From Candidatus Omnitrophota bacterium (GTDB lineage Bacteria; Omnitrophota; Omnitrophia; Omnitrophales; Aquincolibacteriaceae): a DNA stretch of 64,000 nucleotides. Both the position numbers and the translations under genes were made by a program. The stretch spans positions 12,210-76,209 of the forward strand of contig JAUYMS010000047.1 of NCBI GenBank assembly GCA_030698625.1, read 5' to 3'. The notes under the pieces were generated by a model. It was not told the DNA's origin and ran no database searches. It saw nothing but the letters and a program-made list of their open reading frames with translations. This document shows positions 1 to 42,002 of this stretch, one piece after another (within the stretch, counting starts at the first letter, position 1; each line of letters opens with the position of its first letter).

Positions 1-1501
1 CATCTAATTTATTAGAACGCTTCACAGCCGCCGGTCCACCGGCGCGAGACTCGTCTTCAGTTGGGGGCGCGGCCGCTTCTCTGCCGTCGATAATTCTCAA
101 GCGCTGTACCAAAGCCGCCAAGATCCAGAAATAGCCGGCCACTTCAAGATGATCCAGCCGTGAACCGAACATATTACTCATAAGAAGTCCGAACAAACCG
201 CCTAAATACCCTAACGCCACAGCCTTTGAAAATGGGTCCTTTGTGCGCGCGTACAACGAATACGCCATCCATATAGTGACTAATACAATCAGCAGGAAAT
301 TGAGCAGCGCCGGAATCCCCATTTCTGCGGCGATAATAATGTAGGAATTATGTGCGTCAATCGGGCGATTCTGTTCCCAGTAAGGTGAAATCCGGTAATA
401 AAAAAGTCCGTATCCGACACCCAGCATCGGGTACTCCGCGATCATTTTGACGGCCCCCTTCCAGACCTCTACGCGCGTCTTCGAACTCGTTTCCAACGAA
501 CCCTCCAACTCCTCGGCCGTTTCTATATAGCTCACATCTTTGTTGATCGTCTGCATCATGCGGTATCGAATACCCGCCGGCAAAATAATCGGGTTCAGAA
601 CTGCCAGGCCCGTGAGCCCCAGCAATACTATAAATAGAAACTTACTCCGAAACCAGGCGGCCGCATAAAGCCCAAGCGCAAAGGCCAGATAGCCCCCGCG
701 CGAAAACGTGACCATGATGCCGCGAAATTGGATCAGGAACGGCACCAGCAAAAGCCAGTACTTCGGCCGGTGCATATTCATCAGGAAGAACCCGAACGGC
801 AGGAACATGTAGTAGCAGAAAAACGCTGCCAGCGAATTCGAGTGCTCGGCAATACCGCCTACGCGCGATTTTTCAAGGGTCGATACTTCTCCGATCTCAA
901 TGTAATCGTAAATCGCCATAAGCCCCACAAGCGTGGTCACTATAATCATGATGCCGATAATATTACGTATCGTCTTTTTATCTTTAACCGTATTCAGCAC
1001 CAAGAAGTACAGGATCAACGGAGTAATCCACCGCTTATATTGGGTCAGAACATCCCAGTAATTAGCAGAACTATGCGTTACGCCGCGATAAACCGCCACT
1101 AACCCAAAGACCATAAACATAAAAATCAGGCCGTTCAGCGGACTGCTCAACCAGGGCGGCTCTCCTTCCGCATACTTGCCGGAAATCCATGCCACGATAA
1201 TAAAGATCATCAAGACGTTCGTCATATTGAGCGACTGGGCCGCGCCGCTGAAATCCCCGACCAAGATGCGGCTAAAAGGCAGGTACGCCACAAGCACATA
1301 CGTAATCACATGAGGCTTTGAAATGCCCTGCACGATCAATATGATGCCACCGATCAGCCCGGCACTGATCAAGACATAACTGGGCAGACTAACTTCCTTG
1401 AGCACGATATACGCAAAAATCGTTGCAATGATCCCCATCAAGAAATAAGTCTTGATGTTCTCTTTATCCGGAAAAATCTGAAGTGGTGCCGTTGTCGCCA
1501 T
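1..1501 (-). CDS. O-antigen ligase/polymerase family membrane protein (Wzy_C-type), truncated at the C-terminus by the window edge
   Basis: Manual translation of the reverse strand from the ATG at 1501 (MATTAPLQIFPDKEN...) stays open to position 1. The protein is polytopic and hydrophobic, with Wzy_C-like segments ...GGIAEHSNSLAAFF... and ...AHNSYIIIAAEMGIPALL... Its ATG overlaps the TAA of the upstream gene (TAATG). Confidence 0.65.
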   Translation of the reverse strand, partial: MATTAPLQIFPDKENIKTYFLMGIIATIFAYIVLKEVSLPSYVLISAGLIGGIILIVQGISKPHVITYVLVAYLPFSRILVGDFSGAAQSLNMTNVLMIFIIVAWISGKYAEGEPPWLSSPLNGLIFMFMVFGLVAVYRGVTHSSANYWDVLTQYKRWITPLILYFLVLNTVKDKKTIRNIIGIMIIVTTLVGLMAIYDYIEIGEVSTLEKSRVGGIAEHSNSLAAFFCYYMFLPFGFFLMNMHRPKYWLLLVPFLIQFRGIMVTFSRGGYLAFALGLYAAAWFRSKFLFIVLLGLTGLAVLNPIILPAGIRYRMMQTINKDVSYIETAEELEGSLETSSKTRVEVWKGAVKMIAEYPMLGVGYGLFYYRISPYWEQNRPIDAHNSYIIIAAEMGIPALLNFLLIVLVTIWMAYSLYARTKDPFSKAVALGYLGGLFGLLMSNMFGSRLDHLEVAGYFWILAALVQRLRIIDGREAAAPPTEDESRAGGPAAVKRSNKLD

Positions 1502-2664
1502 TAAGCCCACTCCCTTTCACGCAAGTATTTGTAAATTTCGCGCGCGGCAAAGGCATGGCCGCGGGCGTTCCAGTGGCCGTCATGCTTAAAGCAAAACTTC
1601 TTGGTTCCACCGGATTCTTCAAAAAATGCGTCGAATGAATTAAAATACAACGCACCCGCATCACCGGCCGCTCTTTCAATAACGGTTGTTTTACCCGGGC
1701 GACGCCCCTCACCCGCCGTAGTCTCATAAACCATGAAATGCGCGCCTATTGATTCAGAATATTCCCGCATTTCCGTAATGAGCCGAGACGTAATGCTCAC
1801 CTCTTGGGCCTCGACGGCCGCGGGAACCGATGCTCGCCCTGTCCGATTAGCCACACCCATCGCGAGCCTCTGACGTATCCAAGAGAAGAATCGTGACTTT
1901 ACCAGCAAGCGCTTAACGAAGCTTCTGAGAGAAACCGCTTTATCCTCTAGCGGCCCCTGAAAGGCGCCGGTGTAGAATGCCTGTGCCTCGGGCGTCGCTA
2001 AGACCCACTCCGAATCCGGCGACACATCAGGCACCGGCACACCTTGCAAGACCAGCTCCCCCGTTTCTTCAGCCAAAAAGTAAGGTTTAGCCTTGCGGCC
2101 CCTTTGATGGATTGTAATGTTCTCAAGTGGGTCATTGAGAACCGCGACATAAATGATTACGTCAGGCGCATAGCGATACCCTTCCGTCATGAGGTAAAGA
2201 AGACTTTGATCCCCACCATAAGCCCGCGTACCAGCGTTGATAACCTCATATTTCCCTTGATTGGCCAGAAGCGCTTCAAGCTGCGTGTCGATAAGCGACT
2301 GCTTGTCAACTTCATAACCAACGGTCACGGAATCGCCTAGCAAAAGAATCCTTTTTGTCCCGGGCGCCTTGGCATAATCGTATTCCTCGTCTCGCAATCC
2401 GTGCGAGTTGATGTTAATGACATTGCGATATTTGTTCCGTTTGCTCGCAAAAAAACCGGTTGTGTTTGCACGTTTACGCCAACCGAGTAATGGGTCGGCT
2501 TCATGCAACATGCTCACATTATCCTTTTCGGAGTAAAGCAGCTCCAGATAGCCATCGTAGGAATAGAAGCAAATTTCAATAAACACAAAACACGCCACAA
2601 GCGCGCCGATGGCGACCAGCAGATTAAAATACAATGGGTTTTGTTTTTGTTTTGTTACCGCCAT
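1501..2664 (-). CDS. SGNH/GDSL-family hydrolase with an N-terminal TM anchor (possible polysaccharide O-acetyl esterase/acetyltransferase-type)
   Basis: An N-terminal hydrophobic helix is followed by the block LLLGDSVTVGYEV (GDS motif) and GTRAYGGDQ. The gene sits inside the glycan locus. Confidence 0.55.
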   Translation of the reverse strand: MAVTKQKQNPLYFNLLVAIGALVACFVFIEICFYSYDGYLELLYSEKDNVSMLHEADPLLGWRKRANTTGFFASKRNKYRNVININSHGLRDEEYDYAKAPGTKRILLLGDSVTVGYEVDKQSLIDTQLEALLANQGKYEVINAGTRAYGGDQSLLYLMTEGYRYAPDVIIYVAVLNDPLENITIHQRGRKAKPYFLAEETGELVLQGVPVPDVSPDSEWVLATPEAQAFYTGAFQGPLEDKAVSLRSFVKRLLVKSRFFSWIRQRLAMGVANRTGRASVPAAVEAQEVSITSRLITEMREYSESIGAHFMVYETTAGEGRRPGKTTVIERAAGDAGALYFNSFDAFFEESGGTKKFCFKHDGHWNARGHAFAAREIYKYLREREWA

Positions 2665-3815
2665 TACCGCTCACTCCCTGCTAAACTATTGTATATACCT
2701 GCCACGGCAGCTGCGTTGCGTTCCATATCGAATTCTGTCTGCGCGATCCGCCGGCCTGCCTCCGCCAATTGTTCGCTTAACCGTGAATCCTGTGCCACTC
2801 GACTCAAGGCATCCGCCAATTCGGCGGCATCACCCGGTGCCGTGAGAATGCCCGTCACCCCATCCTTAATCATTTCGGAGACACCCCCGCCTCGGGCCGC
2901 AATCACAGGTTTCCCTGCCATCATGGCCTCTAAGATCACCAGGCCGAACGGCTCCGGCGTGACCGAGGCATGAACAACGATATCTGAGGCCTCATACACC
3001 GGGCTCATGTCTTCCTGCCAGTCGCAAAACTTCACCTTACCCGCCAAACCTAAAGACGCGGCCTTTTCCACCAACGCCCGGAGGTATCTCTGATCCGGCT
3101 CAGGGTCTTTACCCATCAACACACCGACAAGGTCCGGATTTGTAACCACCGCCTTGGCCAAAGCTTCAATGAATATCTCCTGCCCTTTCCACGGCACTAA
3201 TCGGCCCGCCATCAGAGCCACGACACTATCCTTATCGATTTGCCAGAGTTCGCGTTGGCGCCCGCGCAGTTGTGCTCGGTTACTTACCGTATCTTGCCAA
3301 ACCAGGCCATTACGAATCGTCATAACAGGGCGCTTCAACTGTTCCTCAAAATAAGCCGATCCGGCCTTTGAGATGCACGCAAATTCGTCCACGAAACGCG
3401 CAAGAAAGCTCTCGGAACGCGTCATCTTCCGCCAGCCGTGCAGATGACACAGCACCCGGCAGCCGGCCAGTTTCGCGGCAATTAGGAGCGGGATATGCGT
3501 CAGGATCTCGTTATTAAGATGCACCACGCGTATCTCCCGCATCCCGAGCAACACCGAGATCTTCCTGACCATGTTCAGAAGTTTGAAACCCGCCACCACC
3601 CGGCTGCCCCTCCACACAAATCGCCACCCAGGGCGATACCAAACATCATTACCCTCCGAACGCAGCTTTCCAATAAACGGACCGTCACCATAAGCCGCAA
3701 CGCTTACGTGAAACCCGCGCTCTTTTAGAAGCGGCACGAGGCTTGCAAGGTACTTCGCAGTCCCGCCGTAGCCCGTGCCCGATTCGGCTATTAATATTCG
3801 CGTCATAGTTTTCAT
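2664..3815 (-). CDS. Glycosyltransferase family 4 (GT-B, retaining)
   Basis: C-terminal EPFGLVILEAMMAGKPVIAARGGGVSEMIKDG matches the GT1/GT4 EX7E-type signature. Length 383 aa. Confidence 0.8.
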   Translation of the reverse strand: MKTMTRILIAESGTGYGGTAKYLASLVPLLKERGFHVSVAAYGDGPFIGKLRSEGNDVWYRPGWRFVWRGSRVVAGFKLLNMVRKISVLLGMREIRVVHLNNEILTHIPLLIAAKLAGCRVLCHLHGWRKMTRSESFLARFVDEFACISKAGSAYFEEQLKRPVMTIRNGLVWQDTVSNRAQLRGRQRELWQIDKDSVVALMAGRLVPWKGQEIFIEALAKAVVTNPDLVGVLMGKDPEPDQRYLRALVEKAASLGLAGKVKFCDWQEDMSPVYEASDIVVHASVTPEPFGLVILEAMMAGKPVIAARGGGVSEMIKDGVTGILTAPGDAAELADALSRVAQDSRLSEQLAEAGRRIAQTEFDMERNAAAVAGIYNSLAGSER

Positions 3816-3817
3816 TC

Positions 3818-5785
3818 TTACTTTATCACCGCCAGCGGAGCGGGCTTCGGCTTGTTGTAGTAGTGCCTGTTCTTCAAACCGACCATCCGCCTCACTTTAT
3901 TGATAGCGCGAGGCATGAAATAGGTGCTCTTCACCCTTGCCCGGTGCTCCCGCGCAAAAAACGCGCGCCTCATCACAGACTCTTCGTCCAAATTCCATTT
4001 CTCACACAACAGCTCGTGTGACTTTGACACCTTGTCGAGATCCCAGCGAAAGAGCATGTAGCCCCGATCCGCTCCGCGGAACTTAAAGATGCGTTCATAG
4101 TTGTAAGCAACAACCGATTTCGGCTCGAGCATAATACGAAACCCCGCTTCGGTGATGCGCAGCGAGTAATCCATGTGCTCGGCAATGTTCAGATCACGCA
4201 GCGGCCCCACCTTCTCCATTAACTTCTTAGAGAGAAGAACCGTATGCCACTCGAAGAAATCACTTGGCTTACGGTTTTGGTCCGGGTAGTCCTTAAGCTC
4301 CACGCCGGAGTAAGTGGGGATTGTATCCATGAGCCACTTGTCCCCGCGCTTCTCCTTATAGATCTTGCCCTCGGCGATATGGATCTTCCGGCTGGGGTCA
4401 CTCAGCTCCACCGTCAAATAGATGGGGTGAACACAATCCACCTTCTCTTCTTCAGCGCACGCGACGAGGTTTTCAAGCCACCCTTCCAGCACCTCGACAT
4501 CATTGTCGATAAAACAGGCGTACTTCGTATCGATCATGGGAATCGCCTGGTTCACGAACTGATGCGGGAACTGCCAGCGGTCCGAGTACACAATTTCGAC
4601 ATTGCTGTGCTTTCCGGCGATCTTCTCCAGCCCGGCAAGCCTGTCCTTCGGGCAATGCCCTTCCATAATGATCATCTTGAACGGGATCGTGGTCACATCG
4701 ATCATGCGCTGCACGACTTCCCCGAACGCATTAAAACTCTCCCGCGGCACGACGACCACGGTCACAATCGGCGCCTTCTTTTCTACAGACTTCATTTTAG
4801 ATTCCTCCTGAATTTTGTTTTGAGTAAACACGCACCAGTTCTTCCCGAAGCCAAAGGGAAGCCAGTGAATGAAAGTCTCTTTAACCATTGCGGCATAATG
4901 CCCGAGCCACATCTCTGAAGCAAAACGATTCGCCTCCGTCTCATGGATATTTAAATGGGCCCGATGAAACCGAATGAATGAAAACAACAGTCTCTTCCAC
5001 ACCCAAACCGGCGCAATCGTTACGCAGCGCTGCCTGCCGGCGGCCAATTCGTGCCCGAGGGTTATCCCCACATCGCGAAACCAACGTCTCATGTACTCTT
5101 TAGTAAGGCGATCCTTTTCTACTATGTGCATAACGAGCGAGGCGGGCTCATAATAAATGGCGCCGCTCTTCGCAAGGACGCGCTGATAAAACTCCCGGTC
5201 TTCTCCGCCAATCAGAGAGTCCCCGCGGCGGCCCAGATCCACATTGAAATCACCATAGAGCTCGAAGGCCTTCTTGCGAACCGCAAGAGCCGCAGTAACC
5301 AGATGCCTTCGGGGCGAGTCACACCGCATACGCGCCTGCCCGAAGTTTTGATTGATCAAGCACCCCCCCAGATCTTCCGAGTACCATTCGGGCACTTCGC
5401 AGCGCCATAACCGGTCAATCTTGCCGCCGACAACGTCTGCATCGGTCTCCTCAAAACAGCGCCGATACCCTGCCAGCCAGCCCTCCGTTACAATAACATC
5501 ATCATCCAGCGACACGACAATACTGCCCTCAGCCGCTCGAATACCCGCATTGCGCGCATGTGCGACGCCCTGCCGCGCTTCGAAAACATATCGTATCGCG
5601 GGCCCCGTCGCCTTTTGAAAGGACTCGACAACAACCCTTGTATGATCCTTCGAGTTGTTGTCGACGACCACAACGTCGCAGACCAGCTCATCAAAACCCG
5701 AGTCCGCTACGATAGAGGCCAGACATTCCCGCAGGCTCTCCGCACGGTTATAGGTGCATACCACAATGCTAAACTCTCGCTTCAT
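3818..5785 (-). CDS. Two-domain glycosyltransferase (GT2 + second GT2-like domain)
   Basis: The N-terminal domain reads FSIVVCTYNRAESL...VVVVDNNSKDHT...SLDDDV. A second domain reads APIVTVVVVPRESF...ACFIDNDVEV. Confidence 0.7.
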   Translation of the reverse strand: MKREFSIVVCTYNRAESLRECLASIVADSGFDELVCDVVVVDNNSKDHTRVVVESFQKATGPAIRYVFEARQGVAHARNAGIRAAEGSIVVSLDDDVIVTEGWLAGYRRCFEETDADVVGGKIDRLWRCEVPEWYSEDLGGCLINQNFGQARMRCDSPRRHLVTAALAVRKKAFELYGDFNVDLGRRGDSLIGGEDREFYQRVLAKSGAIYYEPASLVMHIVEKDRLTKEYMRRWFRDVGITLGHELAAGRQRCVTIAPVWVWKRLLFSFIRFHRAHLNIHETEANRFASEMWLGHYAAMVKETFIHWLPFGFGKNWCVFTQNKIQEESKMKSVEKKAPIVTVVVVPRESFNAFGEVVQRMIDVTTIPFKMIIMEGHCPKDRLAGLEKIAGKHSNVEIVYSDRWQFPHQFVNQAIPMIDTKYACFIDNDVEVLEGWLENLVACAEEEKVDCVHPIYLTVELSDPSRKIHIAEGKIYKEKRGDKWLMDTIPTYSGVELKDYPDQNRKPSDFFEWHTVLLSKKLMEKVGPLRDLNIAEHMDYSLRITEAGFRIMLEPKSVVAYNYERIFKFRGADRGYMLFRWDLDKVSKSHELLCEKWNLDEESVMRRAFFAREHRARVKSTYFMPRAINKVRRMVGLKNRHYYNKPKPAPLAVIK

Positions 5786-8036
5786 TGCCCCTCCCCACCC
5801 ATGAACTTTTGTCCAGACACAATTTGATCAGGAATTCGGGAAGAAACGAACCGGCATAATACCCGGCCACACGCGGCTGCCATCGTTTAAAACGGAGTGA
5901 AAGCTTCGCCAACGCACGGCTCTTCCGGAAGTGACCGGCTCTCAGATAGTGCCACGCTGCCATGCGCGAATTCTCCGCAATATGCGACTTCAACAGCCTC
6001 CTGCTGCGGCCCTTAACGTGACGATAATTGCGCGCCAGCGCAATCGCATCGTTCTCCCGCCTCGCATACGCCCGATCTTCCAAAGACCCCATAATGCTGT
6101 TCCCCTGGATCGTATACTCGAACAACGGCTTATCCACCAGCGCAAACAGAGTCTGTTGCGCCGATCGCAGCCAAAGGTCGTAGCCCTCACAGCCGTGCAA
6201 GTCAGAGGCATACCCCCCAACCCGCTCAAAAAGGTCCTTGCGCATCATCGCCGAAGACAATGTCACCACGTTCGCACGCAGCAGCACCGTGTCAATCGGC
6301 CCTCCCGACACATCGCTCAGCCCATAGCGTTCAGCGTCAATCCACTTCCGGAACTCAGGCACATTTCGCTGAAGAACCGTAGGCCGAAAGACCTGCCCGC
6401 CGCATACTGCTATGCCGTCCGTAAACACAACACCGACTTCAGGGTGTTCCTCGAGAACAGCGCCTTGCTCGGCCAGCTTCGCCGGCCGCCACGCATCATC
6501 ATCATCCAGAAACGCGATATACTCGCCCGCGGCTATACTTACGCCATGGTTACGCTTGACGGACACAAGGCACTTGAGCGGCAGGCGACAATATTTGATG
6601 CGGGGATCTCGCGCGGAAAGTTCCTGCACGTACTCTTTTGTCCCGTCATCCGAAAGATCATCGACAACAATCAACTCCCAATTCTTCACCGACTGTTTTT
6701 CAACGCTGGCAATCGCGCGCTTCAGGCTGCTCAACCTGTTAAGGGTCGGCATAATGACGCTGTACTTCGGCATGCCTTCGCTGCCCCCAGCGCCCGGCTC
6801 TTGCATGCCATCAAATGTATCCAGCACATTTTCCAGCACACGCTCCGCAATCCCCTGCGAATAATTCCCCTTCACCAGCGCAAAAGCCTTTTCGGCCATA
6901 TCCTGACGCCTGTTTTGATTCGTCAGTAAATCCACACAGCATGCCGCAAAGTCATCGGCGGCGTCCGCTAGCCTTATATCCACCTTATCGCTAACGGCGA
7001 TACCTTCCGCGCCAACCGTTGTTGACACAACCGGCCTTCCGTAAGCCATAGCTTCAAGAATCTTGATGCGGGTTCCGGCACCATTCAGCAAGGGAACGAC
7101 TGTTATGCTTGCCCGCTCATAATACGGCTGCGTGCTGGGCACAAACCCGACGATCTCGACCCCAGGCCTCTCGTTCAGCTTCAATAATCGGGCCGCAGGG
7201 TCTTTACCGATGACGGTAAATACGGCGCCCGGTACACGCTCACGAATGAGCGGAAATATCTTTTCACAAAAGAAAAAGACCGCTTCCTCATTATGAGGAA
7301 AACTAAGCAGGCCGCAAAAAAGGATCTCCGGTGAATTGCCGCCTGCCTTGGCGGCCGGACACGTAGCCGATGCAATCTCAATTGTGTTTGGTAGAACATA
7401 AGCTTTTGAAGCGTAGCCCCTCGACTCCAGATAGCGTGCGTCATCCGCTGAAGCCGCAAGCACCGCCCGACTCGCTTTCAGCTTCTTGTAATACGTTTTG
7501 AGAAAGTAAAGCTCCAGCCAATGACGAAATTTTCGATAACTGTACGGCATAGCACGCATGCGCCTTTGTTCCACATTGATTGCGATATCATCCACATCTA
7601 TGATTGTCCGGGGCAGCAATTGCCTCAGACTCTTATTCACGAACAAGTAATACGCCATAATCGGATACCGCACAAACACGGCGTCAACCCCTTCAGCGGC
7701 CGCTTCAACCAAAGCCTGTCTTAATTCATCAGAAATAAAGTCCTGCACATTCCACGGCTTCATCGCAAGCACATTCCACAGCCGCTCATAAAACGGCGCC
7801 GGCCTGCCGTGATATGATTCCGGCGGAAACTTGTTAGCAGAAATCACGACCACCTTATCGCAATACCGTTGCAACGCCTGGACATTGGCATGCACCTGAT
7901 CTTCCGCAAACTTGGATCGGCAAATCAGCGTGACCTTTCCCTTTTTGGCGAGACTCTTCAATATGGTCAACGACCGCATATTCCCGCCGCTATTCGGCGG
8001 ATAGGGCAAAGCATTGCATATGTAAAGAATTCTCAT
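5769..8036 (-). CDS. Bifunctional glycosyltransferase (N-terminal GT4 + C-terminal GT2)
   Basis: The N-terminal part is GT4-like: MRILYICNALPYPPNSGG ... VPLLNGAGTRIKILEAMAYGRPVVST. The C-terminal part is GT2-like: YSVIMPTLNRLSSL...LIVVDDLSDDGT...FLDDDDAW. Confidence 0.7.
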   Translation of the reverse strand: MRILYICNALPYPPNSGGNMRSLTILKSLAKKGKVTLICRSKFAEDQVHANVQALQRYCDKVVVISANKFPPESYHGRPAPFYERLWNVLAMKPWNVQDFISDELRQALVEAAAEGVDAVFVRYPIMAYYLFVNKSLRQLLPRTIIDVDDIAINVEQRRMRAMPYSYRKFRHWLELYFLKTYYKKLKASRAVLAASADDARYLESRGYASKAYVLPNTIEIASATCPAAKAGGNSPEILFCGLLSFPHNEEAVFFFCEKIFPLIRERVPGAVFTVIGKDPAARLLKLNERPGVEIVGFVPSTQPYYERASITVVPLLNGAGTRIKILEAMAYGRPVVSTTVGAEGIAVSDKVDIRLADAADDFAACCVDLLTNQNRRQDMAEKAFALVKGNYSQGIAERVLENVLDTFDGMQEPGAGGSEGMPKYSVIMPTLNRLSSLKRAIASVEKQSVKNWELIVVDDLSDDGTKEYVQELSARDPRIKYCRLPLKCLVSVKRNHGVSIAAGEYIAFLDDDDAWRPAKLAEQGAVLEEHPEVGVVFTDGIAVCGGQVFRPTVLQRNVPEFRKWIDAERYGLSDVSGGPIDTVLLRANVVTLSSAMMRKDLFERVGGYASDLHGCEGYDLWLRSAQQTLFALVDKPLFEYTIQGNSIMGSLEDRAYARRENDAIALARNYRHVKGRSRRLLKSHIAENSRMAAWHYLRAGHFRKSRALAKLSLRFKRWQPRVAGYYAGSFLPEFLIKLCLDKSSWVGRGNEARV

Positions 8037-9070
8037 GGGCTCGTCCTGCTTCCCTTCCTTTCCACTGGGCGTAAATTTGTGCGCTGGCCTAAGAAGCCGC
8101 GGACAGTATCCTCCAGCCTTGCTACGATTCGACCGGTCTGATGCCAGAAATAAAGCTCTGACTCCACGCCCTCTACCCTACGCCCCTTTAAATAATGTCG
8201 AACCACATTGCATGCTGTAATAAACCATTGCCTGTAATACCAAGGGGGCAGTTTTCTAGCCGCGGCAGGCTGTGACACATACTCCGATCGCCCGCCCTCA
8301 AACCGCCGCCGACGCATGTACGGAAGTCTCAGGCGCTCTGCAGCTACACGGTGATAAACCACTGATTCGGGCAGCCAGACGACCTTTTTCCCGAGCGACA
8401 AGATACGCCCTAACATTTCAGTTTCCTCTCCGCCTGCCAACTTGCTGCCCATGCGCCCTAAGTCAGTCCTGAAGAGCCCCACCTCCGCGAATAATTTACG
8501 ACGGAATGCCATATTTGCACCGTAGACAAAGTTCTCATGGCGGCCGGCGACGTCACGGATTAAGGGCAAATCGCCATGATCAAGTACCGCAAAAAGACCC
8601 TCACAATGGCGCTCCAACCGGGGGGCAGAAAGCCATGACGGTTTTTCTTCTTCCCAAAGCGGCAACACCTTACCACCCACGCAATCGGCCTCATGCGTAC
8701 TAAACCCCGCTACTGTTTTCGATACCCAGTCCATCTTCGGCATCACGTCATCATCCGTAAAAATTAGCAGCTCACCCATAGCGCTTTGAATGCCGGCGTT
8801 TCGCGCATAGCTAAGGCCCTGCCGCCCTTCAAATACGTATTGCATGGAAAAAGGCATATTCTTTTCTGCGCCTTCAAAGACCGCTTTCGTGCCGTCTGAG
8901 CTGTTGTTGTCGACGACAATTACGTCGAGGGCGTCGTTGTCGCCAACAATCTGCTCTGAGATTGCTTTTAAAGTAAACTGCAGGCTAGCAGCCCGGTTAT
9001 AAGTGCATATGATTACTGTTACCTTACGCATGCGACACCTCATCGGGCCACCCCACACCAGCCGGTTCAC
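8033..9070 (-). CDS. Glycosyltransferase family 2
   Basis: VTVIICTYNRAASL...DVIVVDNNSSDGT...FTDDDV is a typical GT2 DXD architecture. Confidence 0.8.
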   Translation of the reverse strand: MNRLVWGGPMRCRMRKVTVIICTYNRAASLQFTLKAISEQIVGDNDALDVIVVDNNSSDGTKAVFEGAEKNMPFSMQYVFEGRQGLSYARNAGIQSAMGELLIFTDDDVMPKMDWVSKTVAGFSTHEADCVGGKVLPLWEEEKPSWLSAPRLERHCEGLFAVLDHGDLPLIRDVAGRHENFVYGANMAFRRKLFAEVGLFRTDLGRMGSKLAGGEETEMLGRILSLGKKVVWLPESVVYHRVAAERLRLPYMRRRRFEGGRSEYVSQPAAARKLPPWYYRQWFITACNVVRHYLKGRRVEGVESELYFWHQTGRIVARLEDTVRGFLGQRTNLRPVERKGSRTSP

Positions 9071-10212
9071 TCATTTTTATTTGTAAGCCCTTTCGCAGAC
9101 ATACCATTACGAAGCTGACCCGTCTGCGACGCCAACAAGCCCTTAGCCATATCACGAGCCTCTTCAACCGTGTCGGCCCATAAGCTGATAGACGATTCAG
9201 TTCGCCACGTCTCGCGGAAATTCTTCAGCTTCCCATATTTATCACCAAGGCATACGTGCGGGATACTCATCAGCAAGCAGAGAATATGGCCATGCAATCT
9301 GTCCGTAATAACAACTTTCCCACGCGATAACATCGCGCAACCTCTGCGCAACCGCATACGCGCCATTCTTTCAGACTGGGTCGCATTAAGTCGCCACAAT
9401 CCCGCTAACCTGTTCGGCGCCCATGAAATGGCCCCACTTAAGAACTTAAGCGAAGTCTTCGTCGCAGATGGCGGCTCCGCGAGCCAATCCATGCACTCAA
9501 CCGTCACGCCGCCCATTGATGCCATCCTCACCCGATTACTTGCCTGCAGCATTCCACTTTCCAAGTCACTTCTACGCAGCCAAAGGGTGTCGCATGTATG
9601 CTGACCGAGCCTTTCCAAAGGGCCCAAAGCAAATGCCATATCAGGACACAGGATAACGCGCGCCCGAAATTCAGCCCGTGCAACGGCTGCGCTATGTCCA
9701 TCCCTTGCCAATATAATCACGTTCTCATGTCTATTAATTATTCTACGCGCGCGAGCAAGACTTTTATCGCTATTGAACTGGATCGACTGCGGCATCTGTA
9801 TAATCCGCCTGTCCGGGAAATCACTGATAATCCTTTCGCGAAACGCTTGATGCATCGGCCATAAGTCACCAAAATTACCCCCGCCATGGATTAACACATC
9901 CCCTTCAGGCAAGCACTTTTCAAGCACTGGCTTCGAATAGGATACTAAATCGCACACGTACGCCACTTTAACCCTACTCTGCAGGGCACTTTTCTCGCCC
10001 ATCCAAATTGCGCTATCTCCGCAGTTACTGTGCCCAGGAAAATCCACCAAGGCAACTTCCGTCGACAGCCTAAGCCGCCCAAGGCCGTCGCAAATCGCCG
10101 CGCCAAGCCGGCCCATCATGCAAACACCGGACGATCGCATAGCTGTCGATTCCGCAGCGACATCGCTAACCAGCCCTTTCATTTCCACATTGCCTATATC
10201 GCTCGTCATCAT
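9067..10212 (-). CDS. Polysaccharide pyruvyl transferase family protein (CsaB/WcaK-like)
   Basis: HGGGNFGDLW and surrounding blocks resemble the PS_pyruv_trans family. Size (~380 aa) and context fit. Confidence 0.55.
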   Translation of the reverse strand: MMTSDIGNVEMKGLVSDVAAESTAMRSSGVCMMGRLGAAICDGLGRLRLSTEVALVDFPGHSNCGDSAIWMGEKSALQSRVKVAYVCDLVSYSKPVLEKCLPEGDVLIHGGGNFGDLWPMHQAFRERIISDFPDRRIIQMPQSIQFNSDKSLARARRIINRHENVIILARDGHSAAVARAEFRARVILCPDMAFALGPLERLGQHTCDTLWLRRSDLESGMLQASNRVRMASMGGVTVECMDWLAEPPSATKTSLKFLSGAISWAPNRLAGLWRLNATQSERMARMRLRRGCAMLSRGKVVITDRLHGHILCLLMSIPHVCLGDKYGKLKNFRETWRTESSISLWADTVEEARDMAKGLLASQTGQLRNGMSAKGLTNKNE

Positions 10213-10315
10213 CTACGCAAAACAACCTTCCGTTTGATGAATTGCACGGCTCGTCGTGGCCAACCCCAGATGCCCCGCGCATACAGGCCAGCCAAACAAT
10301 CCTCTAGCGCCTCAA

Positions 10316-11005
10316 TCAACACACCATCTCGCGCCAATCGCACCGTTGTTGCAAGGCATTAATGTTTGCTACCGCCGTACGTGCGGCAAATAAGATGATG
10401 TTCTGACAATAGTAGCTCTCTATGTTCTCGTCGTGCCATATTTGCTTTCGCACATAATCACTCGCTATATAACCGGCACGACGAAAGCGCTCAACCCAAT
10501 AGTCCTGCCACTGCTCATTAACATGCAACACACCGCCTTGGTTCGGGACAGCGGCCGAAAAAGCAATAACATCGGCGTGCTTCACTAATGACTTTACAAA
10601 TAAATCCGCCGCATCCGGCGGCAAATGTTCCGCTACCTCAAACGACCACGCTAGATCGAAGTGTCTCCCAAGATCAAAACCACTTTTCAGATCGCATGCC
10701 AGAAAACACTCTGACGAAATATCTAGACTGCCTTTTTCTACCCAGTCGCCATCGATCCCCATAATTTCGTTAACGCCACACTGCTTCGCCGCCGCAAGCC
10801 ACAAACCTGTGCCGCAACCCACATCCAGAACAGACTTAGGCCTGATGAGCGCTACCAGCAAGGGAACGATCTTTGCAGCTGCACGCAAACGGTTCTCATG
10901 GGCATCGCCATAAAATGCCTTGGAATACAATTTTCGCTCAACGCACGAATCATTGCGTGTGTTCATCGCGTGAATCCTCCCTTTCTTAATGCGACGTTGC
11001 ATCAT
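10316..11005 (-). CDS. Class I SAM-dependent methyltransferase
   Basis: Motif I is VLDVGCGTGLWL and motif II-like is DLAWSFEVAEHL. Confidence 0.7.
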   Translation of the reverse strand: MMQRRIKKGRIHAMNTRNDSCVERKLYSKAFYGDAHENRLRAAAKIVPLLVALIRPKSVLDVGCGTGLWLAAAKQCGVNEIMGIDGDWVEKGSLDISSECFLACDLKSGFDLGRHFDLAWSFEVAEHLPPDAADLFVKSLVKHADVIAFSAAVPNQGGVLHVNEQWQDYWVERFRRAGYIASDYVRKQIWHDENIESYYCQNIILFAARTAVANINALQQRCDWREMVC

Positions 11006-12027
11006 CGATTGGCTTGGAAGTCACACCACTTAGCTGCTGAAATATCCCATTCCGGGATATCATCGGCCATAAAGTGCTTTAACTCCGTCAGGTCCGGTGA
11101 CACTGCTGACATTACGCGCACGTAATTCGCGGCGGAATAGCGAATTTCCCCGAATACCTTTCGAGTCCGCTGTTTGCCTTCATTGTAGACCTTAAAATTG
11201 CCCCCATCGTATTGCCGTGACTCGACACCCAGAAATTCAAACACATTCTTGAGAGTCGCGGGCACGTTCTTAACAAAGCGTTCAAAGACGATCACTTTAA
11301 AGCTTGCCTTTGGGAAGAAGCGCAGATAATGATTCAGTTGCGCAAAGTAGCGACTTAACTCAACGTATGCTCCAGGGTTCTCTGCAAGCTCCTCGTTGAA
11401 TGGCCGCTGCGTTAAGGCTACCGGTCTCCCACCGTTAAATGGCTGCTTCGCCACCGCTGCGTGATGGCGGTACTGAGCCACGATGCGTGCCAGCGGATTT
11501 CGTACCAGATAGATAAATTTCATGTCGGGACACAGCTTGCTAAGCCGCGCCGGAACTTCGCTGCCCATATAAGGGGCTTTTGTATAGAATGTTGATGACT
11601 CTCCAAACATTTTTTCACCGTGGTAGCCATTTAGCAAGGTACGCAGTAATTGGTCGTTGGACAGCCCCATCTTAATCTGATTCGCCGACATTGAAGAAAC
11701 GATCGGTATCTCGTTTGAATAGTCCAGAAAGAGGCCCGGCTCCTTAAGGTTTGGTGTATAGATGTCATCATGGCGTCCTAAGTAGTAATGCAGACTTGAT
11801 GTTCCGGACTTCATTGCGCCGATAATCAGAAAATTCGGCAGCACTGTCCGCAGCCGCAGTTGCTTAAGCTCAAGACACCGGCCGCGCCCCAAGTATATTC
11901 TTGAGGGTGAAAGGAACGGATTGCGGTGGTAACGAGCACTCTTGTTAGCAAAAGAGGCTGCGGAGCATTGCACAAGATTGACCTTTGGTGTTGTCCAGAA
12001 TGCATCATCTCTATTTCTAGTAGCCAT
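11002..12027 (-). CDS. Sulfotransferase-domain protein (PAPS-dependent)
   Basis: The 5'-PSB-like motif is PNFLIIGAMKSGTSSL. The 3'-PB-like motif is YLVRNPLARIVAQY. Confidence 0.7.
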   Translation of the reverse strand: MATRNRDDAFWTTPKVNLVQCSAASFANKSARYHRNPFLSPSRIYLGRGRCLELKQLRLRTVLPNFLIIGAMKSGTSSLHYYLGRHDDIYTPNLKEPGLFLDYSNEIPIVSSMSANQIKMGLSNDQLLRTLLNGYHGEKMFGESSTFYTKAPYMGSEVPARLSKLCPDMKFIYLVRNPLARIVAQYRHHAAVAKQPFNGGRPVALTQRPFNEELAENPGAYVELSRYFAQLNHYLRFFPKASFKVIVFERFVKNVPATLKNVFEFLGVESRQYDGGNFKVYNEGKQRTRKVFGEIRYSAANYVRVMSAVSPDLTELKHFMADDIPEWDISAAKWCDFQANR

Positions 12028-12033
12028 AATTGG

Positions 12034-13506
12034 TCACACTCCCACCGCACCGAACAATAAGCGCTTTACTTCATTGCTCGCCGTTCTGTCTATGCATTGA
12101 AACACCGTAACATGCGCCACAACCGCTGTGATTCCATAGGCAACAAGATGCGCGAAGCTGTCGAGCGACACGGAAGCCGATACGCCGACGTCCCGCAAAA
12201 GAAGCCGCATCACTATTATGGTTGTGCTCAAGGCTGCAGCCGCAAGAAACGATGGCAACAGCTGCGCCAGAAACTCGCACCATTGAAACGCTACGATCCG
12301 CCGAATGCGCGTCAAATAAAGCGGAACCATGACAGCGTGCATGATTAACAATGTCATCGCTGCGCCCGTGACACCAAATTTCAACGTCATTCCGATAAGC
12401 ACGGGAACTTTAATGACTAGATGAATCAGGCCGAGCTGATAACTATATTGTGGATTCCCGCTTCCCTGGAAGATCGAACCCGACGCAGCGATCATGGGCG
12501 ACAATATCTGTACCAACCCCATAACCTGAATCAGCGGAACAATAGGCAGCCATTTTTCACCATACAAGGCCAATGTAATCTCATGCGCAAGTAAGATGAC
12601 AACAAGGCTGAACGGTATCGTAAAAATCGAGGCGAGTTTGACTGTTTTCATGTAAGCCCGTTTCAGGGCGGCCGGATCGTCCTGGATCGCCGAATAGGCC
12701 GGAAACATTACGCGCGATATCAGCTGCGCAAAGTGAGTATTTACGAAATTAGTCATGTTGCGGGCAAGTGCGAAATAGCCGAGGAGTGTGGCACCCAGCA
12801 TTTTACCGACAACGATAATTCCGATCTGGCTGTTGATGAACCAGATGACATTCAGGCCCACCAGAAACTTGCCAAAGTGAAAGAGCTCCTTCGCGAGCTT
12901 CGGGTCGAACTGAAACTTCAGCCGGTAGCCGGACAACCACCAATTCATGGAAGTCATAACTATCTGTTTGGCGATGTACGCCACAACGAGGCTCCACACC
13001 GTGGGGCTAATCATCACGAGGGCTATCGCACAAAGCGAATTTGTGATCGAACTGACCAGCTCAGTGACCGCGGTTACCTTAAAGCGCATGTTCTTGACGA
13101 GCAATGACAGCGGAACTTTGCCGAGGCAGCTCATGATGAAGACCACCCCAAGCGCCCGCACGATCGATCCGACTTCGGGGTTATTGAAGAACTTCCCTGC
13201 CAGCGGGGCTGCAATGAAGCAAATTGCGAACATCGTGATGCCCATCGCCTGCAGCATGAAAAAGGCTGTGTGCTGCATGGCTTCGGGCGCGTCTCTTTTC
13301 TGGACGAGGCCGGCATCGAGGCCCATCGACTGGAACACGGCAAGACCGTCGATGGCGACGAATGCCATCGCGAAGATACCGAAGACCGACGGCTCGAGAA
13401 TGCGCGCCAGCACGGCAAAGGTCGCCACCGAGATGACCTTCTGGGCGACCTTGTTGATGACCTGCCACTTCACGCCTGATACTGTTTTTTCTTTTAGTGT
13501 TTTCAT
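12034..13506 (-). CDS. wzx: Wzx-type oligosaccharide flippase (MOP/polysaccharide biosynthesis protein family)
   Basis: 490 aa, about 12-14 predicted TM segments. The N-terminus (KWQVINKVAQKVISVATFAVLARIL) is typical of Wzx/PST proteins. Confidence 0.7.
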   Translation of the reverse strand: MKTLKEKTVSGVKWQVINKVAQKVISVATFAVLARILEPSVFGIFAMAFVAIDGLAVFQSMGLDAGLVQKRDAPEAMQHTAFFMLQAMGITMFAICFIAAPLAGKFFNNPEVGSIVRALGVVFIMSCLGKVPLSLLVKNMRFKVTAVTELVSSITNSLCAIALVMISPTVWSLVVAYIAKQIVMTSMNWWLSGYRLKFQFDPKLAKELFHFGKFLVGLNVIWFINSQIGIIVVGKMLGATLLGYFALARNMTNFVNTHFAQLISRVMFPAYSAIQDDPAALKRAYMKTVKLASIFTIPFSLVVILLAHEITLALYGEKWLPIVPLIQVMGLVQILSPMIAASGSIFQGSGNPQYSYQLGLIHLVIKVPVLIGMTLKFGVTGAAMTLLIMHAVMVPLYLTRIRRIVAFQWCEFLAQLLPSFLAAAALSTTIIVMRLLLRDVGVSASVSLDSFAHLVAYGITAVVAHVTVFQCIDRTASNEVKRLLFGAVGV

Positions 13507-13878
13507 ATTTGTCGGGTTTTGAGATCCTTCGCTTCGCTCAGGATGACAGCGGTAAACCTTTTTAAAAGCTGGTACTTAATTAGATAGAACTTTCCCGCTT
13601 TTGGGAGTCATAAATTTTTTGGTACAAATGTGTTAAAGCATACCCGGTGAATCACTTACATTCAAACCGATACCGTTTGCGATCTAGCACCGGCAGTCAA
13701 GTCTATGTTTTCCTCCTCTTTTCTGTTTGATCTTATGCTATTGATAATTCGTGTCGCATAGCGTCCTGCTGCCGGACGACCCGATAGTCCTCCCGGTGAA
13801 GCGCCGGTTGAATCATCGATTCAAGCTCGCAGCCGCGATTACACTTTTTTCCAACGCGTCCCACGATACCGGGCATAA

Positions 13879-14568
13879 TTAGGCCTCCTTTCCCGGGGCC
13901 ACATGGCTCAAGCGCAACACATTGGCATGACTGGTAAGACCAACCATCAGCACGCCCACACCTACTAATTCCATCAATTCCTCGGCCATCAAACGCGATG
14001 CACGCCAGAACATCGGCGTATCTTCCGTAATAAGATTCGTTAACATCTCGACGCCCACAGCCCCCCCAAAAAATAGCAGCAAGCCGCTTAACGCACATAT
14101 CGCGCCCGAGCCGTTACTGTCAAAACTTCGTTTTAACTCGGGGAAAACCCACACAACAAAAGCCAAAATAAACGGGCCGAAGAGGACGGGCCACGATGTT
14201 CTGTGCAACGCATCAAGAAACCACGCCGGCATAAAGTTACGCTCGATCACTCCCGAGAAGTTCTCGTGAAACATCACAACCTCATCGCATGACATAAACG
14301 CCAGGGCGCCCGCGGTCAAGAACCACGCCTGCCCTATGTCCCTGCCTGCGGAATTCCCTGCGGTCACAAATGCCGCATGCGCCGCCATAAAAAACATCAC
14401 GCTTGAAACCCATGTGGGGATATTCCCCTCGCGCTGCAAATTGAATAATCTCTCAAGCTGCCAACTCCGCCCATCCAGGAGCAATGCCAGCAAGTGCATC
14501 CCCGCCAATATCAGAATGACTAACCCAACGAGTGCTAACGCACTAGACTGTTTCATTGACGCCTTCAT
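13879..14568 (-). CDS. Small polytopic membrane protein of unknown function (paralog family member 1 of 3)
   Basis: Hydrophobic throughout. Shares ...RD.R.AW... and C-terminal EELMELVGVGVLMVGLTSH blocks with the proteins at 23865..24671 and 29482..30126. Confidence 0.5.
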   Translation of the reverse strand: MKASMKQSSALALVGLVILILAGMHLLALLLDGRSWQLERLFNLQREGNIPTWVSSVMFFMAAHAAFVTAGNSAGRDIGQAWFLTAGALAFMSCDEVVMFHENFSGVIERNFMPAWFLDALHRTSWPVLFGPFILAFVVWVFPELKRSFDSNGSGAICALSGLLLFFGGAVGVEMLTNLITEDTPMFWRASRLMAEELMELVGVGVLMVGLTSHANVLRLSHVAPGKEA

Positions 14569-16276
14569 TTGCTACTGCGTTTCTTGCAACATGCGACAGT
14601 CGGCATACCAAAATGTCATTCGGCGACGCGCCCGCCGTTTCGAATGTCGCCGCGCTTCCGTTCTGTCCATACCATATCGCCTCGCGCAGAAGAAATATCC
14701 TCACCGCGGCCGGCACCGACATCGGATCGTCGAAGTCAATTCGCTTAAGAAGAAACCATAGGTCCCGGCCCTCATAGTGTGACCGGAGTTTTGCGATATC
14801 AGCCGGCGAGCTGAGCATTTCGACAAACTGTTTCCGGTTGTAAAGGGGCAGCACCCTTCCCGGCCGCGGCGCATCGCTTCCGCTCTGGATATGGTTCGCG
14901 CTAAAAATCGGCTCGCGGAATCCGTAAAAGCGGGCCTCTTTGGAATGAGAGACGACCACCGGATTACCCGCGGCGATTCTGCCGCCGAATAGTTCATGCG
15001 CCCGGCCCCAGGCCGGCCTCACCTCGCGGCGCACATAATCGACGGACGTCAGGGCCCACGGATGCGCCGTCGGAACAAGCACGGCAATGCCCAGGCAGGC
15101 CAGGGAGCCGCTTATGGCAAAACGCCGCACGCGGCCGCGCGATGCCCACGCCTGCTTCATGCATTTCGCCACCGTGGCCGCCGTTGCCGCGATCGCCGGG
15201 GCCAGAGCAATATAAAAAAATGTCAGGTCGAACAAGATATACCGTTCCTCTTTTCGCAGAAAGACGAAGGTCTTCAGAAGAAACGGAACAGCAAAAAGAC
15301 ACACAACAAAAGCTCCGCGACGGCCGTATTTCCAGCACGCGTAGACGGCCGCCAACGGATAGAGCGTAAAGAGAACCGGATAGAGGTCTTCCATGGTCCA
15401 CTTGTAAAACAACACCCGGCTGACCGCCCACGAATGCAAAGGGACAGAGAAGGCCTCGGCGGCCATCTTCGTAATAATTCCGGGCTTGAGGACCGCCCCG
15501 ATGACCGCCAGCGCAAGGGTCACGATAAGAATTGCCGAATACTTCGAACTGAAGGGGCCCAGCTTCTCTTCACCGCGAGCCGCCAGGAACATCAGCGCGA
15601 TATACGCAAAGAATGCCGGCACAAAAAAGATAACCAGTTTATGCAATACCAATGAGATACAGAATATTGCGACTGCGCCGAACGCGAGCCCTGTCTGCTT
15701 TAGCCGGCTGCCGGCATATCCCCCCTCAAACAGCCGGAAAGCGAGATACGCGAAGACCGTATACAAAAGCTGAACGAGGGTGTACATGCGGCACTCCCGC
15801 GACATTTTGACACAGAGCGGCGCAAAGGCGATAAGAAGCGCTGCGGCGATCGCGGCCCCGGTTCCAAACCATCGGCGGGTCATCCAGAAGCCAAAGACGA
15901 TGACAGCAACGCCGAAGACAACGGCCGGCATTCTGGCCGCGGTCTCACTGACACCAAAAGTCCTGAACATTCCTGCGATAAGATAGGTGAAAGGCAATGC
16001 CCGCGTATACTCGTAGCCCCCGGGCAGAGTCGGTGAGCCTGTCTCGATCAGCGACTTTGCCGCAAAGACATGGTAAAGCTCGTCGGACCAGAAATTGCTG
16101 ACGCCCAGCTGGTACATGCGCACGCACAGTCCAGCGGCCAAGATAAGCGCCAAAGTCAACCAAACGAGTACACGCCCCCTACTTTTACTTACAGCCGGTT
16201 GTGCAGGGATGTCCAGCACATTGCGCGGCCCGCCGCGGCGGTCGATCCCTCTTTCCAATAGTGCTGAATGGCTCAT
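14543..16276 (-). CDS. GT-C fold glycosyltransferase (family 39/83, ArnT/PMT-like; polyprenyl-phosphate-sugar dependent)
   Basis: N-terminal FWSDELYHVFAAKSL (DE motif loop) followed by more than 10 TM helices. Length 577 aa. Confidence 0.6.
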   Translation of the reverse strand: MSHSALLERGIDRRGGPRNVLDIPAQPAVSKSRGRVLVWLTLALILAAGLCVRMYQLGVSNFWSDELYHVFAAKSLIETGSPTLPGGYEYTRALPFTYLIAGMFRTFGVSETAARMPAVVFGVAVIVFGFWMTRRWFGTGAAIAAALLIAFAPLCVKMSRECRMYTLVQLLYTVFAYLAFRLFEGGYAGSRLKQTGLAFGAVAIFCISLVLHKLVIFFVPAFFAYIALMFLAARGEEKLGPFSSKYSAILIVTLALAVIGAVLKPGIITKMAAEAFSVPLHSWAVSRVLFYKWTMEDLYPVLFTLYPLAAVYACWKYGRRGAFVVCLFAVPFLLKTFVFLRKEERYILFDLTFFYIALAPAIAATAATVAKCMKQAWASRGRVRRFAISGSLACLGIAVLVPTAHPWALTSVDYVRREVRPAWGRAHELFGGRIAAGNPVVVSHSKEARFYGFREPIFSANHIQSGSDAPRPGRVLPLYNRKQFVEMLSSPADIAKLRSHYEGRDLWFLLKRIDFDDPMSVPAAVRIFLLREAIWYGQNGSAATFETAGASPNDILVCRLSHVARNAVANEGVNETV

Positions 16277-16351: not shown

Positions 16352-17098
16352 TCAACGGTCATTTCTGCCCTTCCTCACCACGAAGGCCTGGCCATGAACC
16401 TCGTATTCAAACAATGGTTCAAACGACAAGCTCGGAATTTCCGATAAAAATTGTTTCAATGCGCTTCGCTGCCCGGCTCCTGACTCCTCGCTAAAAGCCC
16501 GCCAATCGTCAAACAGGACAATTGACCCGCCCTCCAAATAAGGCGCAAGCCAGCGCATTGACTCAATCGTGGACGTGTGCAAGTCGCAGTCCAAAAGTGC
16601 TACAGCCACCCTCTTAAACGGGTACTTTTCCCGCAGTTCCTCGGTAAGAGAGTCTTCATAGAAGCCTTCGATCAAATGGGTGCGAGTCCAATCGACCCCA
16701 TTCTTTTCCAGAAATCGGGTGACTTGCTTCCGGGAGCAGGAAAACTGACCCTTGAAAAAGATTCCGTCACCTATTACTTTGTCTATGTCTTCAAGCTCGG
16801 GCAGCCCCTTGAACGAATCGAAGGCATAAAAGTTGGGCCCCTCAAGACCCAACTCACCGCACACCTTTTGTGCCCACCAATACGTATATCCTTTAAATAT
16901 GCCGAACTCGTAATAGTCGCCGATATCCCTGCCACGCTTTTCCGCCGCGTAGCGCAGTGCTCTGCTCACACCGGCCGGCGCTCCGGGGTTTCCCGGCTTG
17001 AAGGACCGATTGATCGCGTGATAGGCCTTGGATCCCAATGCATACAACGGCGGGTATCGGGCGACAACCTTCTCTACCATTTTCTTAAGAGACCGCAT
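16352..17098 (-). CDS. TylF/MycF-family O-methyltransferase
   Basis: YYEFGIFKGYTYWW (E-x-G-x-x-x-G SAM motif) and LLDCDLHTST (DxDxY metal motif) are characteristic of the macrocin O-methyltransferase family. Confidence 0.65.
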   Translation of the reverse strand: MRSLKKMVEKVVARYPPLYALGSKAYHAINRSFKPGNPGAPAGVSRALRYAAEKRGRDIGDYYEFGIFKGYTYWWAQKVCGELGLEGPNFYAFDSFKGLPELEDIDKVIGDGIFFKGQFSCSRKQVTRFLEKNGVDWTRTHLIEGFYEDSLTEELREKYPFKRVAVALLDCDLHTSTIESMRWLAPYLEGGSIVLFDDWRAFSEESGAGQRSALKQFLSEIPSLSFEPLFEYEVHGQAFVVRKGRNDR

Positions 17099-41971: not shown

Positions 41972-42002
41972 AATTTGTGTAACTTGTTCTATATACGGCC
42001 CT

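Follow-up and report, generated by a model that had tools for sequence, protein, structure and literature searches.

In the 64,000-nucleotide stretch analysed here (positions 12,210 to 76,209 of contig JAUYMS010000047.1 of a Candidatus Omnitrophota bacterium, henceforth called the window), a gene for a predicted sulfotransferase was located at 11002..12027 on the minus strand, within a 27-kb surface-polysaccharide gene cluster. The open reading frame (ORF) was intact (341 aa, ATG start, TGA stop), and the ORF list of the window contained no opposite-strand ORF of at least 100 aa overlapping it. An original prediction made from the sequence of the window had placed a sulfotransferase at these positions and had suggested a search with the Sulfotransfer_1 and Sulfotransfer_3 hidden Markov models (HMMs) as a check; the protein passed both Pfam models (Sulfotransfer_3, PF13469: 60.7 bits, cutoff 27, E-value 3e-16; Sulfotransfer_1, PF00685: 46.1 bits, cutoff 22), and none of the NCBIfam models matched it. 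The identical protein is recorded at NCBI as MDP3921352.1 (“MAG: sulfotransferase [Candidatus Omnitrophota bacterium]”, i.e., from a metagenome-assembled genome (MAG)), encoded on a contig of 119,864 bp. Run SRR13727534 provided a 6.4-kb Logan contig that encodes it as well, the NCBI and Logan contigs probably stemming from one common sample. A motif near residues 34–60 recurs in part of the clade, making ATG 12027 a plausible start. Neither a signal peptide nor a transmembrane (TM) segment was predicted; as the protein thus lacks a hydrophobic segment, it is predicted to be soluble and was assigned to the cytoplasm, i.e., the compartment where 3′-phosphoadenosine 5′-phosphosulfate (PAPS) exists.

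Among PDB sequences, the top match of the protein was 3rnl (E-value 1e-22), followed by the heparan-sulfate 3-O-sulfotransferases 3-OST-3, 3-OST-1, and 3-OST-5 and by the N-sulfotransferase domain of NDST. An AlphaFold2 model built with 53 homologues in the alignment reached a mean predicted local distance difference test (pLDDT) score of 79.5 and a predicted TM-score (pTM) of 0.79, with pLDDT above 90 in the greater part of the catalytic core but less than 50 at residues 1–55, which are probably disordered. In this model, the catalytic domain spans approximately residues 62–335 and the protein appears as a single alpha/beta domain with a central parallel sheet, i.e., the sulfotransferase fold. 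A Foldseek search of the model against the PDB was led by 3rnl, NDST1, and 3-OSTs (E-values 3.5e-14 to 1e-8), with tyrosylprotein, natural-product, and cytosolic sulfotransferases further down; the best 50 of the 76 matches at an E-value of 1e-3 or lower were all of the sulfotransferase fold, carbohydrate enzymes first. By HMM, fold, and gene context, the ORF was hence classified as a genuine PAPS-type sulfotransferase of the carbohydrate-modifying kind.

The predicted active site is largely complete. The 5′-phosphosulfate-binding (PSB) loop IGAMKSGTSSL (residues 69–79; 11791..11823, minus strand) aligns with the PSB loop of 3-OST-3 and NDST and carries the putative catalytic lysine Lys73 (codon 11809-11811) in the pattern x-K-x-G-T-[ST]; its part KSGTSSL, which the original prediction had named as the 5′-PSB signature, lies at residues 73–79 (nucleotides 11791-11811). 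In the heparan-sulfate 3-O-sulfotransferase group, the glutamate of the EP(HFF) motif is the general base. The corresponding residue here is predicted to be Glu96 (11740..11742), with KEP of the query placed on the EP of 3-OST-3 in a HMMER alignment to 1t8t. The 3′-phosphate-binding (PB) motif RNPLARIVAQY was found at residues 176–186 (11470..11502) with conserved Arg176 and Arg181, so that it could be confirmed as the second proposed signature except for its serine: in the pattern R-x-P-x-x-R-x-x-S-x-Y, the position corresponding to Ser137/138 of estrogen sulfotransferase is occupied by alanine (Ala184, codon GCT, 11476-11478). Among the aligned nearest relatives, G70, K73, E96, P178, and R181 were invariant or nearly so, as were R176, G75, and T76; position 73 was lysine in 61 of 67 relatives and arginine in 5, position 96 was glutamate in 66 of 67, and position 176, which aligns with the RDP of 3-OST-3, was arginine in 65 of 67. 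The query keeps G70, K73, G75, T76, K95, E96, R176, P178, and R181, and Ala184 is its sole departure from textbook expectation.

The gene is preceded by a Wzx/MOP flippase gene (12034..13506, minus strand; 490 aa, 12 predicted TM segments; PF13440 245 bits, NF007773 231 bits), the stop codon of which lies 6 nt ahead of the sulfotransferase ATG, and it is followed by a gene for a class I S-adenosylmethionine-dependent methyltransferase (PF13489 47 bits). The longest ORF of the latter (10316..11005) overlaps the sulfotransferase gene in an ATGA (11002..11005), on which the original prediction had based translational coupling of the two genes. The overlap is present in the sequence, for this longest ORF only, and both genes are on the same strand in one operon. 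However, an in-frame ATG at 10966 is located 9 nt downstream of a GGGAGG Shine-Dalgarno motif, whereas no such motif accompanies ATG 11005, and ATG 10966 was also picked when genes were called independently on the Logan contig. The start of the methyltransferase is thus more likely at 10966, 35 nt downstream of the sulfotransferase and with its own Shine-Dalgarno motif, giving a protein of likely 216 aa (10316..10966, minus strand). Separated by 35 nt, the two genes still share one operon, but their coupling via the ATGA overlap is unlikely.

All genes from 28920 down to 1501 share the minus strand, and most of them overlap or are a few bases apart; the single gap above 200 nt (372 nt) is upstream of wzx. 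In transcription order, the array falls into three parts: export and chain length (28920-24676), lipid-carrier glycosylation (23810-14543), and the Wzx sub-operon (13506-1501). The last is ordered Wzx, sulfotransferase, methyltransferase, polysaccharide pyruvyl transferase (9067..10212; PF04230 104 bits), and four Pfam-assigned glycosyltransferase (GT) genes, i.e., a GT2 (8033-9070), a GT4-GT2 fusion (5769-8036), a two-domain GT2 (3818-5785), and a GT4 (2664-3815), which together (2664..9070) probably build the repeat unit. It closes with an SGNH/GDSL protein (1501..2664; marginal match to PF13472, 34.5 bits against a cutoff of 32.9) with one N-terminal anchor (TM 9-37), which probably handles O-acyl groups of the polymer outside the cytoplasm. 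Neither phmmer nor a clade HMM retrieved a second sulfotransferase in the window. The GC content of the sulfotransferase, methyltransferase, and pyruvyl transferase genes (9067-12027) was 0.49–0.52 and that of their third codon positions (GC3) 0.52–0.55, compared to a GC3 of 0.60–0.68 for the majority of window genes. These values hint weakly at a separate acquisition of the decoration cassette but are not conclusive, as several unrelated genes of the window are equally low in GC3. Promoter and terminator consensus scans of 1..14600 gave no excess over shuffled sequence and hence did not define the operon borders. In the approximately 1.5 kb of sequence downstream of the last cluster gene (1-1500), ORFs do not exceed 124 aa in any frame, which is unusual in an otherwise densely packed window; the 124-aa ORF (728-1102, plus strand) is without a Pfam match, and an Rfam scan of the whole window, this region included, returned no match.

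The export part comprises a Pfam-assigned outer-membrane polysaccharide exporter (OPX/Wza-like; 27910-28920), an XrtA-system chain-length determinant (26511-27725; TIGR03007 287.7 bits, cutoff 278.85), a probable XrtA/PEP-CTERM-associated ATPase (25676-26518; matching TIGR03015 over its full length, with 321.6 bits slightly below the cutoff of 324.5), and, by TIGR01007 (144.8 bits, cutoff 108), a tyrosine autokinase (24676-25746), all on the minus strand. The eight-gene sub-module at 14543-23810 (minus strand) encodes two ArnC-like polyprenyl-phosphate GT2s, a GlpD-like FAD oxidoreductase, an HpnA-like short-chain dehydrogenase/reductase-type epimerase/dehydratase, a GT4, an LPG_synthase_TM flippase-like protein, a TylF-like O-methyltransferase (16352..17098; PF05711 52 bits), and a GT-C/PMT_2 membrane glycosyltransferase (14543-16276); this gene set suggests lipid-carrier-based glycosylation in the periplasm with a modified sugar, be it oxidised, reduced, or methylated. 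Pfam thus placed the flippase, the pyruvyl transferase, both methyltransferases, and the SGNH protein where the original prediction had them, but the TylF-like enzyme, which had been counted among the decorators of the polymer, is part of a separate sub-module outside the Wzx-sulfotransferase sub-operon. Two small multi-pass membrane proteins without a matching Pfam or NCBIfam family, one within the polysaccharide locus (23865-24671, minus strand, 268 aa) and the other just upstream of it (29482-30126, minus strand, 214 aa), are paralogues (BLASTP E-value 4e-14) sharing W-F-x-A-x-L-x-x-x-S-S-V-V...A-T-R-x-x-D-x-R-x-W. A further unassigned protein with four TM segments (13879-14568, minus strand, 229 aa) is encoded between the GT-C gene and wzx and has no significant similarity to the 214-aa protein.

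The sulfotransferase forms a singleton cluster among approximately 15 billion proteins, its nearest relative being 40–41% identical. The family itself is large, with 19,540 cluster representatives at an E-value of 1e-3 or lower, 5,486 at 1e-10 or lower, and 61 at 1e-30 or lower. From a genome scan for relatives, the best 80 loci were taken, which were distributed over Cyanobacteriota, Actinomycetota, Desulfobacterota, Planctomycetota, Verrucomicrobiota, Bacteroidota, Chloroflexota, Myxococcota, Pseudomonadota, and others. In a conservative search with single sequences, 58 of the 82 related loci had a GT, Wzx, polysaccharide co-polymerase (PCP), tyrosine kinase, or OPX gene within 10 kb. Examples are a Desulfobacterales locus with wzx immediately upstream of the sulfotransferase gene (L008), a Phycisphaerales locus with tyrosine kinase, Wzx, GT4, sulfotransferase, and more GTs (L051), a Desulfobacula locus with GTs, a Sat-CysC fusion, the sulfotransferase, and Wzx (L009), and a locus with an exosortase and an XrtA ATPase near the sulfotransferase (L004). 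The contigs of two relatives were looked up and both proved to be glycan loci, one with GT2, GT4, and GT8 genes and a second sulfotransferase, the other with a WecG-type GT, exosortase EpsH/EpsI, and an XrtA ATPase. An adenosine 5′-phosphosulfate (APS) kinase was encoded within 10 kb in 7 of the 80 loci, in some cases fused to CysN or ATP sulfurylase and in all cases verified with Pfam, which ties the family to PAPS. Pairing with the methyltransferase (query 10316-10966) is not conserved, as it recurred in one of 82 loci (L073). The statement of the original prediction that sulfated bacterial exopolysaccharides (EPS) are uncommon therefore holds for chemically characterised polymers but not for genomes, where the family numbers 19,540 cluster representatives in many phyla; sulfotransferases in polysaccharide loci are already known in cyanobacteria and several other bacteria and are common in metagenomes, and the present locus is a further example.

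A closely related characterised system was recognised via a tblastn search against plasmids, which matched a sulfotransferase at 40411-41316 of Synechocystis pSYSM; the gene order there identifies it as xssA (sll5042) of the synechan cluster. XssA of Synechocystis sp. PCC 6803 belongs to the sulfotransferase subfamily of the query, is 33% identical to it over 206 aa (BLASTP E-value 4e-26), and shares the 5′-PSB loop, the KEP base motif, and R-x-P-x-x-R, but keeps the 3′-PB serine (RHPIDRLVSQY) where the query has Ala184; the XssE-type sulfotransferase of the same cluster is distant (22% identity, E-value 1e-5). Deletion of xssA abolished accumulation of the sulfated EPS synechan (Maeda et al. 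2021, PMC8205485). The Wzx-type EPS cluster xss has a flippase, glycosyltransferases, and a PCP in common with the query locus; unlike the latter, it belongs to a cyanobacterial host and includes a second sulfotransferase (XssE), an identified Wzy, and its own regulators, whereas the listed xss genes contain neither the pyruvyl transferase nor the methyltransferase present here (PMC8205485). The same study stated that sulfotransferase genes were then not known from EPS clusters of other bacteria, a statement weakened by later work.

In Pontiella sulfatireligans F21 (Kiritimatiellae), sulfated exopolymers were detected experimentally (PMC7356697). In its putative cluster for a sulfated glycosaminoglycan-like EPS, GT4 and GT2 genes adjoin those for a TuaB/Wzx-type flippase, a methyltransferase, and a PF13469 sulfotransferase (tuaB-met-stf), as in the query locus, and a polyprenyl-phosphate GT2 and a GtrA-like protein are encoded as well (PMC7356697); both Pontiella and Omnitrophota belong to the Planctomycetes-Verrucomicrobia-Chlamydiae (PVC) superphylum. 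The comparison covers gene content; the Pontiella polymer is mainly N-sulfated and hexosamine-based, and no pyruvyl transferase or XrtA-type export module was reported for it. Vibrio sp. KMM 8419 produces a capsule structurally proven to be sulfated from a locus with sulfotransferases and cysNDC, called a hallmark by the authors (PMC11641403); that capsule is exported by an ATP-binding cassette (Kps-type) system and its locus brings its own cysNDC, whereas the query window is devoid of PAPS genes. A capsule found to be sulfated by structure determination, with sulfotransferase genes in its biosynthesis cluster, is likewise reported, together with a genomic analysis, for Cobetia marina KMM 1449 (PMC11766843), and a 2024 review lists sulfated polysaccharides in six bacterial genera (PMC11625862). 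A literature search for Omnitrophota sulfur assimilation or EPS yielded nothing relevant, and such a sulfotransferase setting is not discussed in the Omnitrophota papers searched.

Structurally, the best match was PDB 3rnl from Alicyclobacillus acidocaldarius (structural genomics; E-value 3.5e-14, target-normalised TM-score 0.79), which keeps the 3′-PB serine (RNPVDRAFSAY), unlike the query; the entry is titled “sulfotransferase” alone and hence carries no information on the acceptor. The closest solved structures of known function are 3-OST-1, 3-OST-3, 3-OST-5, and NDST1 (Foldseek E-values 1e-8 to 3e-10), with target-normalised TM-scores of 0.6–0.73 between single-domain 3-OST and NST chains and the query model. 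They share the PSB lysine, the position of the glutamate base (EP), and the 3′-PB arginine with the query at 15–23% identity. The animal enzymes, however, reside in the Golgi lumen, act on the finished polymer, and keep the 3′-PB serine and the histidine of EPHFF, where the query has Ala184 and Gly98.

Taken together, we consider it probable (roughly 0.6) that the gene encodes a cytoplasmic PAPS-dependent carbohydrate sulfotransferase from the structural lineage of the heparan-sulfate 3-O/N-sulfotransferases and XssA, which acts on the repeat unit of its own locus. That the protein belongs to the sulfotransferase family, has its fold, keeps the conserved catalytic residues, is cytoplasmic, and is encoded in such an operon is shown by the data; the donor, the acceptor, the timing of each step, and sulfate in the polymer are what we infer in addition. 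On the cytoplasmic side of the membrane, the glycosyltransferases of the operon would link sugars into an oligosaccharide repeat unit carried by undecaprenyl diphosphate. PAPS would be bound via Lys73, Thr76, and Arg176 (the latter at the 3′-phosphate), with Lys73 stabilising the leaving phosphate, and Glu96 would deprotonate a sugar hydroxyl or amine for in-line transfer of the sulfuryl group; O- and N-sulfation are not distinguishable from the sequence. Sulfation would thus take place on the undecaprenyl-diphosphate-linked repeat unit at the cytoplasmic face, where the neighbouring methyltransferase and pyruvyl transferase would add further decorations, and the predicted polymer might accordingly carry sulfate, O-methyl groups, and pyruvate ketals. 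The finished unit would be flipped by the adjacent Wzx, polymerised, and exported via the PCP, tyrosine kinase, and OPX module; the GT-C transferase may add sugars in the periplasm, and the SGNH protein may handle O-acyl groups.

Several observations weigh against this reading. Using Pfam-verified sequences from the related loci as queries, no homologues of APS kinase, ATP sulfurylase, or CysN were detected in any frame of the window at an E-value of 1 or lower. Pfam and NCBIfam scans of the window recognised neither a Wzy polymerase nor a priming phosphoglycosyl transferase, no exosortase family match was obtained among nearly all window ORFs of at least 150 aa and selected smaller ones, and no protein of the window carries a C-terminal PEP motif (PEP-CTERM). 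Lacking Wzy, priming transferase, and exosortase, the pathway is incomplete as seen in the window; exosortase and PEP-CTERM genes may be located elsewhere in the genome. Purifying selection on the lineage cannot be gauged, since the closest relative of this singleton is no more than 41% identical. Finally, the 3′-PB serine is described as conserved across all known sulfotransferases, where it keeps the catalytic lysine off the bridging oxygen before the substrate is bound (PMC3733922), and the query alone among the 67 nearest relatives is without it (serine in 66 of 67, and in 195 of 207 fetched homologues); Ala184 is unusual within the query's own clade.

The leading alternative, which we nevertheless regard as unlikely, is an active sulfotransferase with another acceptor: this could be a small molecule, a glycan on a secreted protein, or, as with NodH, Stf0, KpsS, and LpsS, a glycolipid or lipo-oligosaccharide. 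Characterised bacterial members of PF13469 and PF00685 do include glycolipid and lipo-oligosaccharide sulfotransferases, natural-product and tyrosylprotein sulfotransferases appear lower in the Foldseek list, 24 of the 82 related loci had no polysaccharide gene within 10 kb in the conservative search, and the acceptor-binding regions are not conserved, making the acceptor unreadable from sequence. The position of the gene speaks for the repeat unit instead: it starts 6 nt past wzx and is followed on the same strand by the methyltransferase, the pyruvyl transferase, and four glycosyltransferases; the nearest relatives in structure and sequence are carbohydrate sulfotransferases and XssA, and Pfam scans of the neighbours revealed no polyketide, nonribosomal peptide, ribosomally synthesised peptide (RiPP), or lipid A genes.

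Somewhat less probable still is a weakened or inactive homologue, in which the exchange of serine for alanine would impair PAPS binding or gating and leave the polymer unsulfated. It draws on the near-universal serine and its mechanistic role as outlined above, on the window being free of PAPS genes, and on a second position, 284, which is serine or threonine in 55 of the 67 nearest relatives and glycine in the query. Against it, the ORF is intact and all other catalytic and PAPS-binding residues are retained. Confidence in it is lowered further by the recurrence of alanine at the serine position in 14 of 88 sulfotransferase ORFs (approximately 16%) of the 80 related loci, found in Actinomycetota, a Deltaproteobacteria MAG, a cyanobacterium, and others (loci L040, L043, L044, L046, L052, L053, L063, L067, L069, L076, L082, and L083; ORFs near locus position 10000; typical motif RDPxxRIAAHW). 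All 14 keep K73, E96, R176, and R181 at a median pairwise identity of approximately 35%; alanine recurring at such divergence with the other catalytic residues intact suggests a stable, tolerated state and speaks against simple loss of function.

The same recurrence could mark a functional sub-type with altered donor handling, e.g., use of APS, which has no 3′-phosphate, or loss of the Ser-Lys gate, although we rate this as very improbable. If real, such an enzyme would make an APS kinase dispensable for sulfation of the surface polymer in a small-genome cell of the Omnitrophota. Arg176, the other 3′-phosphate ligand, is kept, which favours ordinary PAPS use over an altered donor, and the distribution of APS kinase within 10 kb (none of 12 Ala-variant loci vs. 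7 of the remaining loci) involves numbers too small to interpret. A chance ORF or assembly artefact, for which the singleton cluster and the occurrence on one NCBI and one Logan contig might be cited, has a negligible probability, being effectively refuted by HMM, PDB, and fold E-values of 1e-14 to 1e-22, by two assemblies giving the identical protein, and by a gene that fits the operon spacing.

Beyond the polysaccharide locus, the window contains a type IV pilus or type II secretion-like cluster (40400-50688, minus strand) with secretin, PilO, PilM, prepilin, platform protein, and two tandem PilB/GspE-type ATPases, as well as a separate 159-aa ORF consisting of an MshEN domain only. At 53288-54379 (minus strand), a CDP-alcohol phosphatidyltransferase domain and a PgpA phosphatidylglycerophosphatase domain are fused in one ORF, which would combine consecutive steps of phosphatidylglycerol synthesis in one protein. 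A giant ORF without a Pfam domain and rich in Ala, Leu, Gly, and Arg (55681-64000, minus strand; more than 2,772 codons) runs past the end of the window; giant genes are a noted trait of Omnitrophota.

The locus leaves the current understanding of how such systems work unchanged, and the alanine that recurs in place of a supposedly universal serine raises a minor question of enzymology that can be tested. Should the polymer prove to be sulfated, this would be the first sign that Omnitrophota, a phylum of uncultured and mostly ultra-small bacteria, have a surface polysaccharide that is sulfated (as well as pyruvylated and methylated). It would also add to the evidence that sulfated polysaccharides occur far more widely outside cyanobacteria than one would expect from the few chemically characterised cases, in agreement with the survey of a family that is large, spread over many phyla, mostly found in glycan loci, and sometimes encoded beside an APS kinase.

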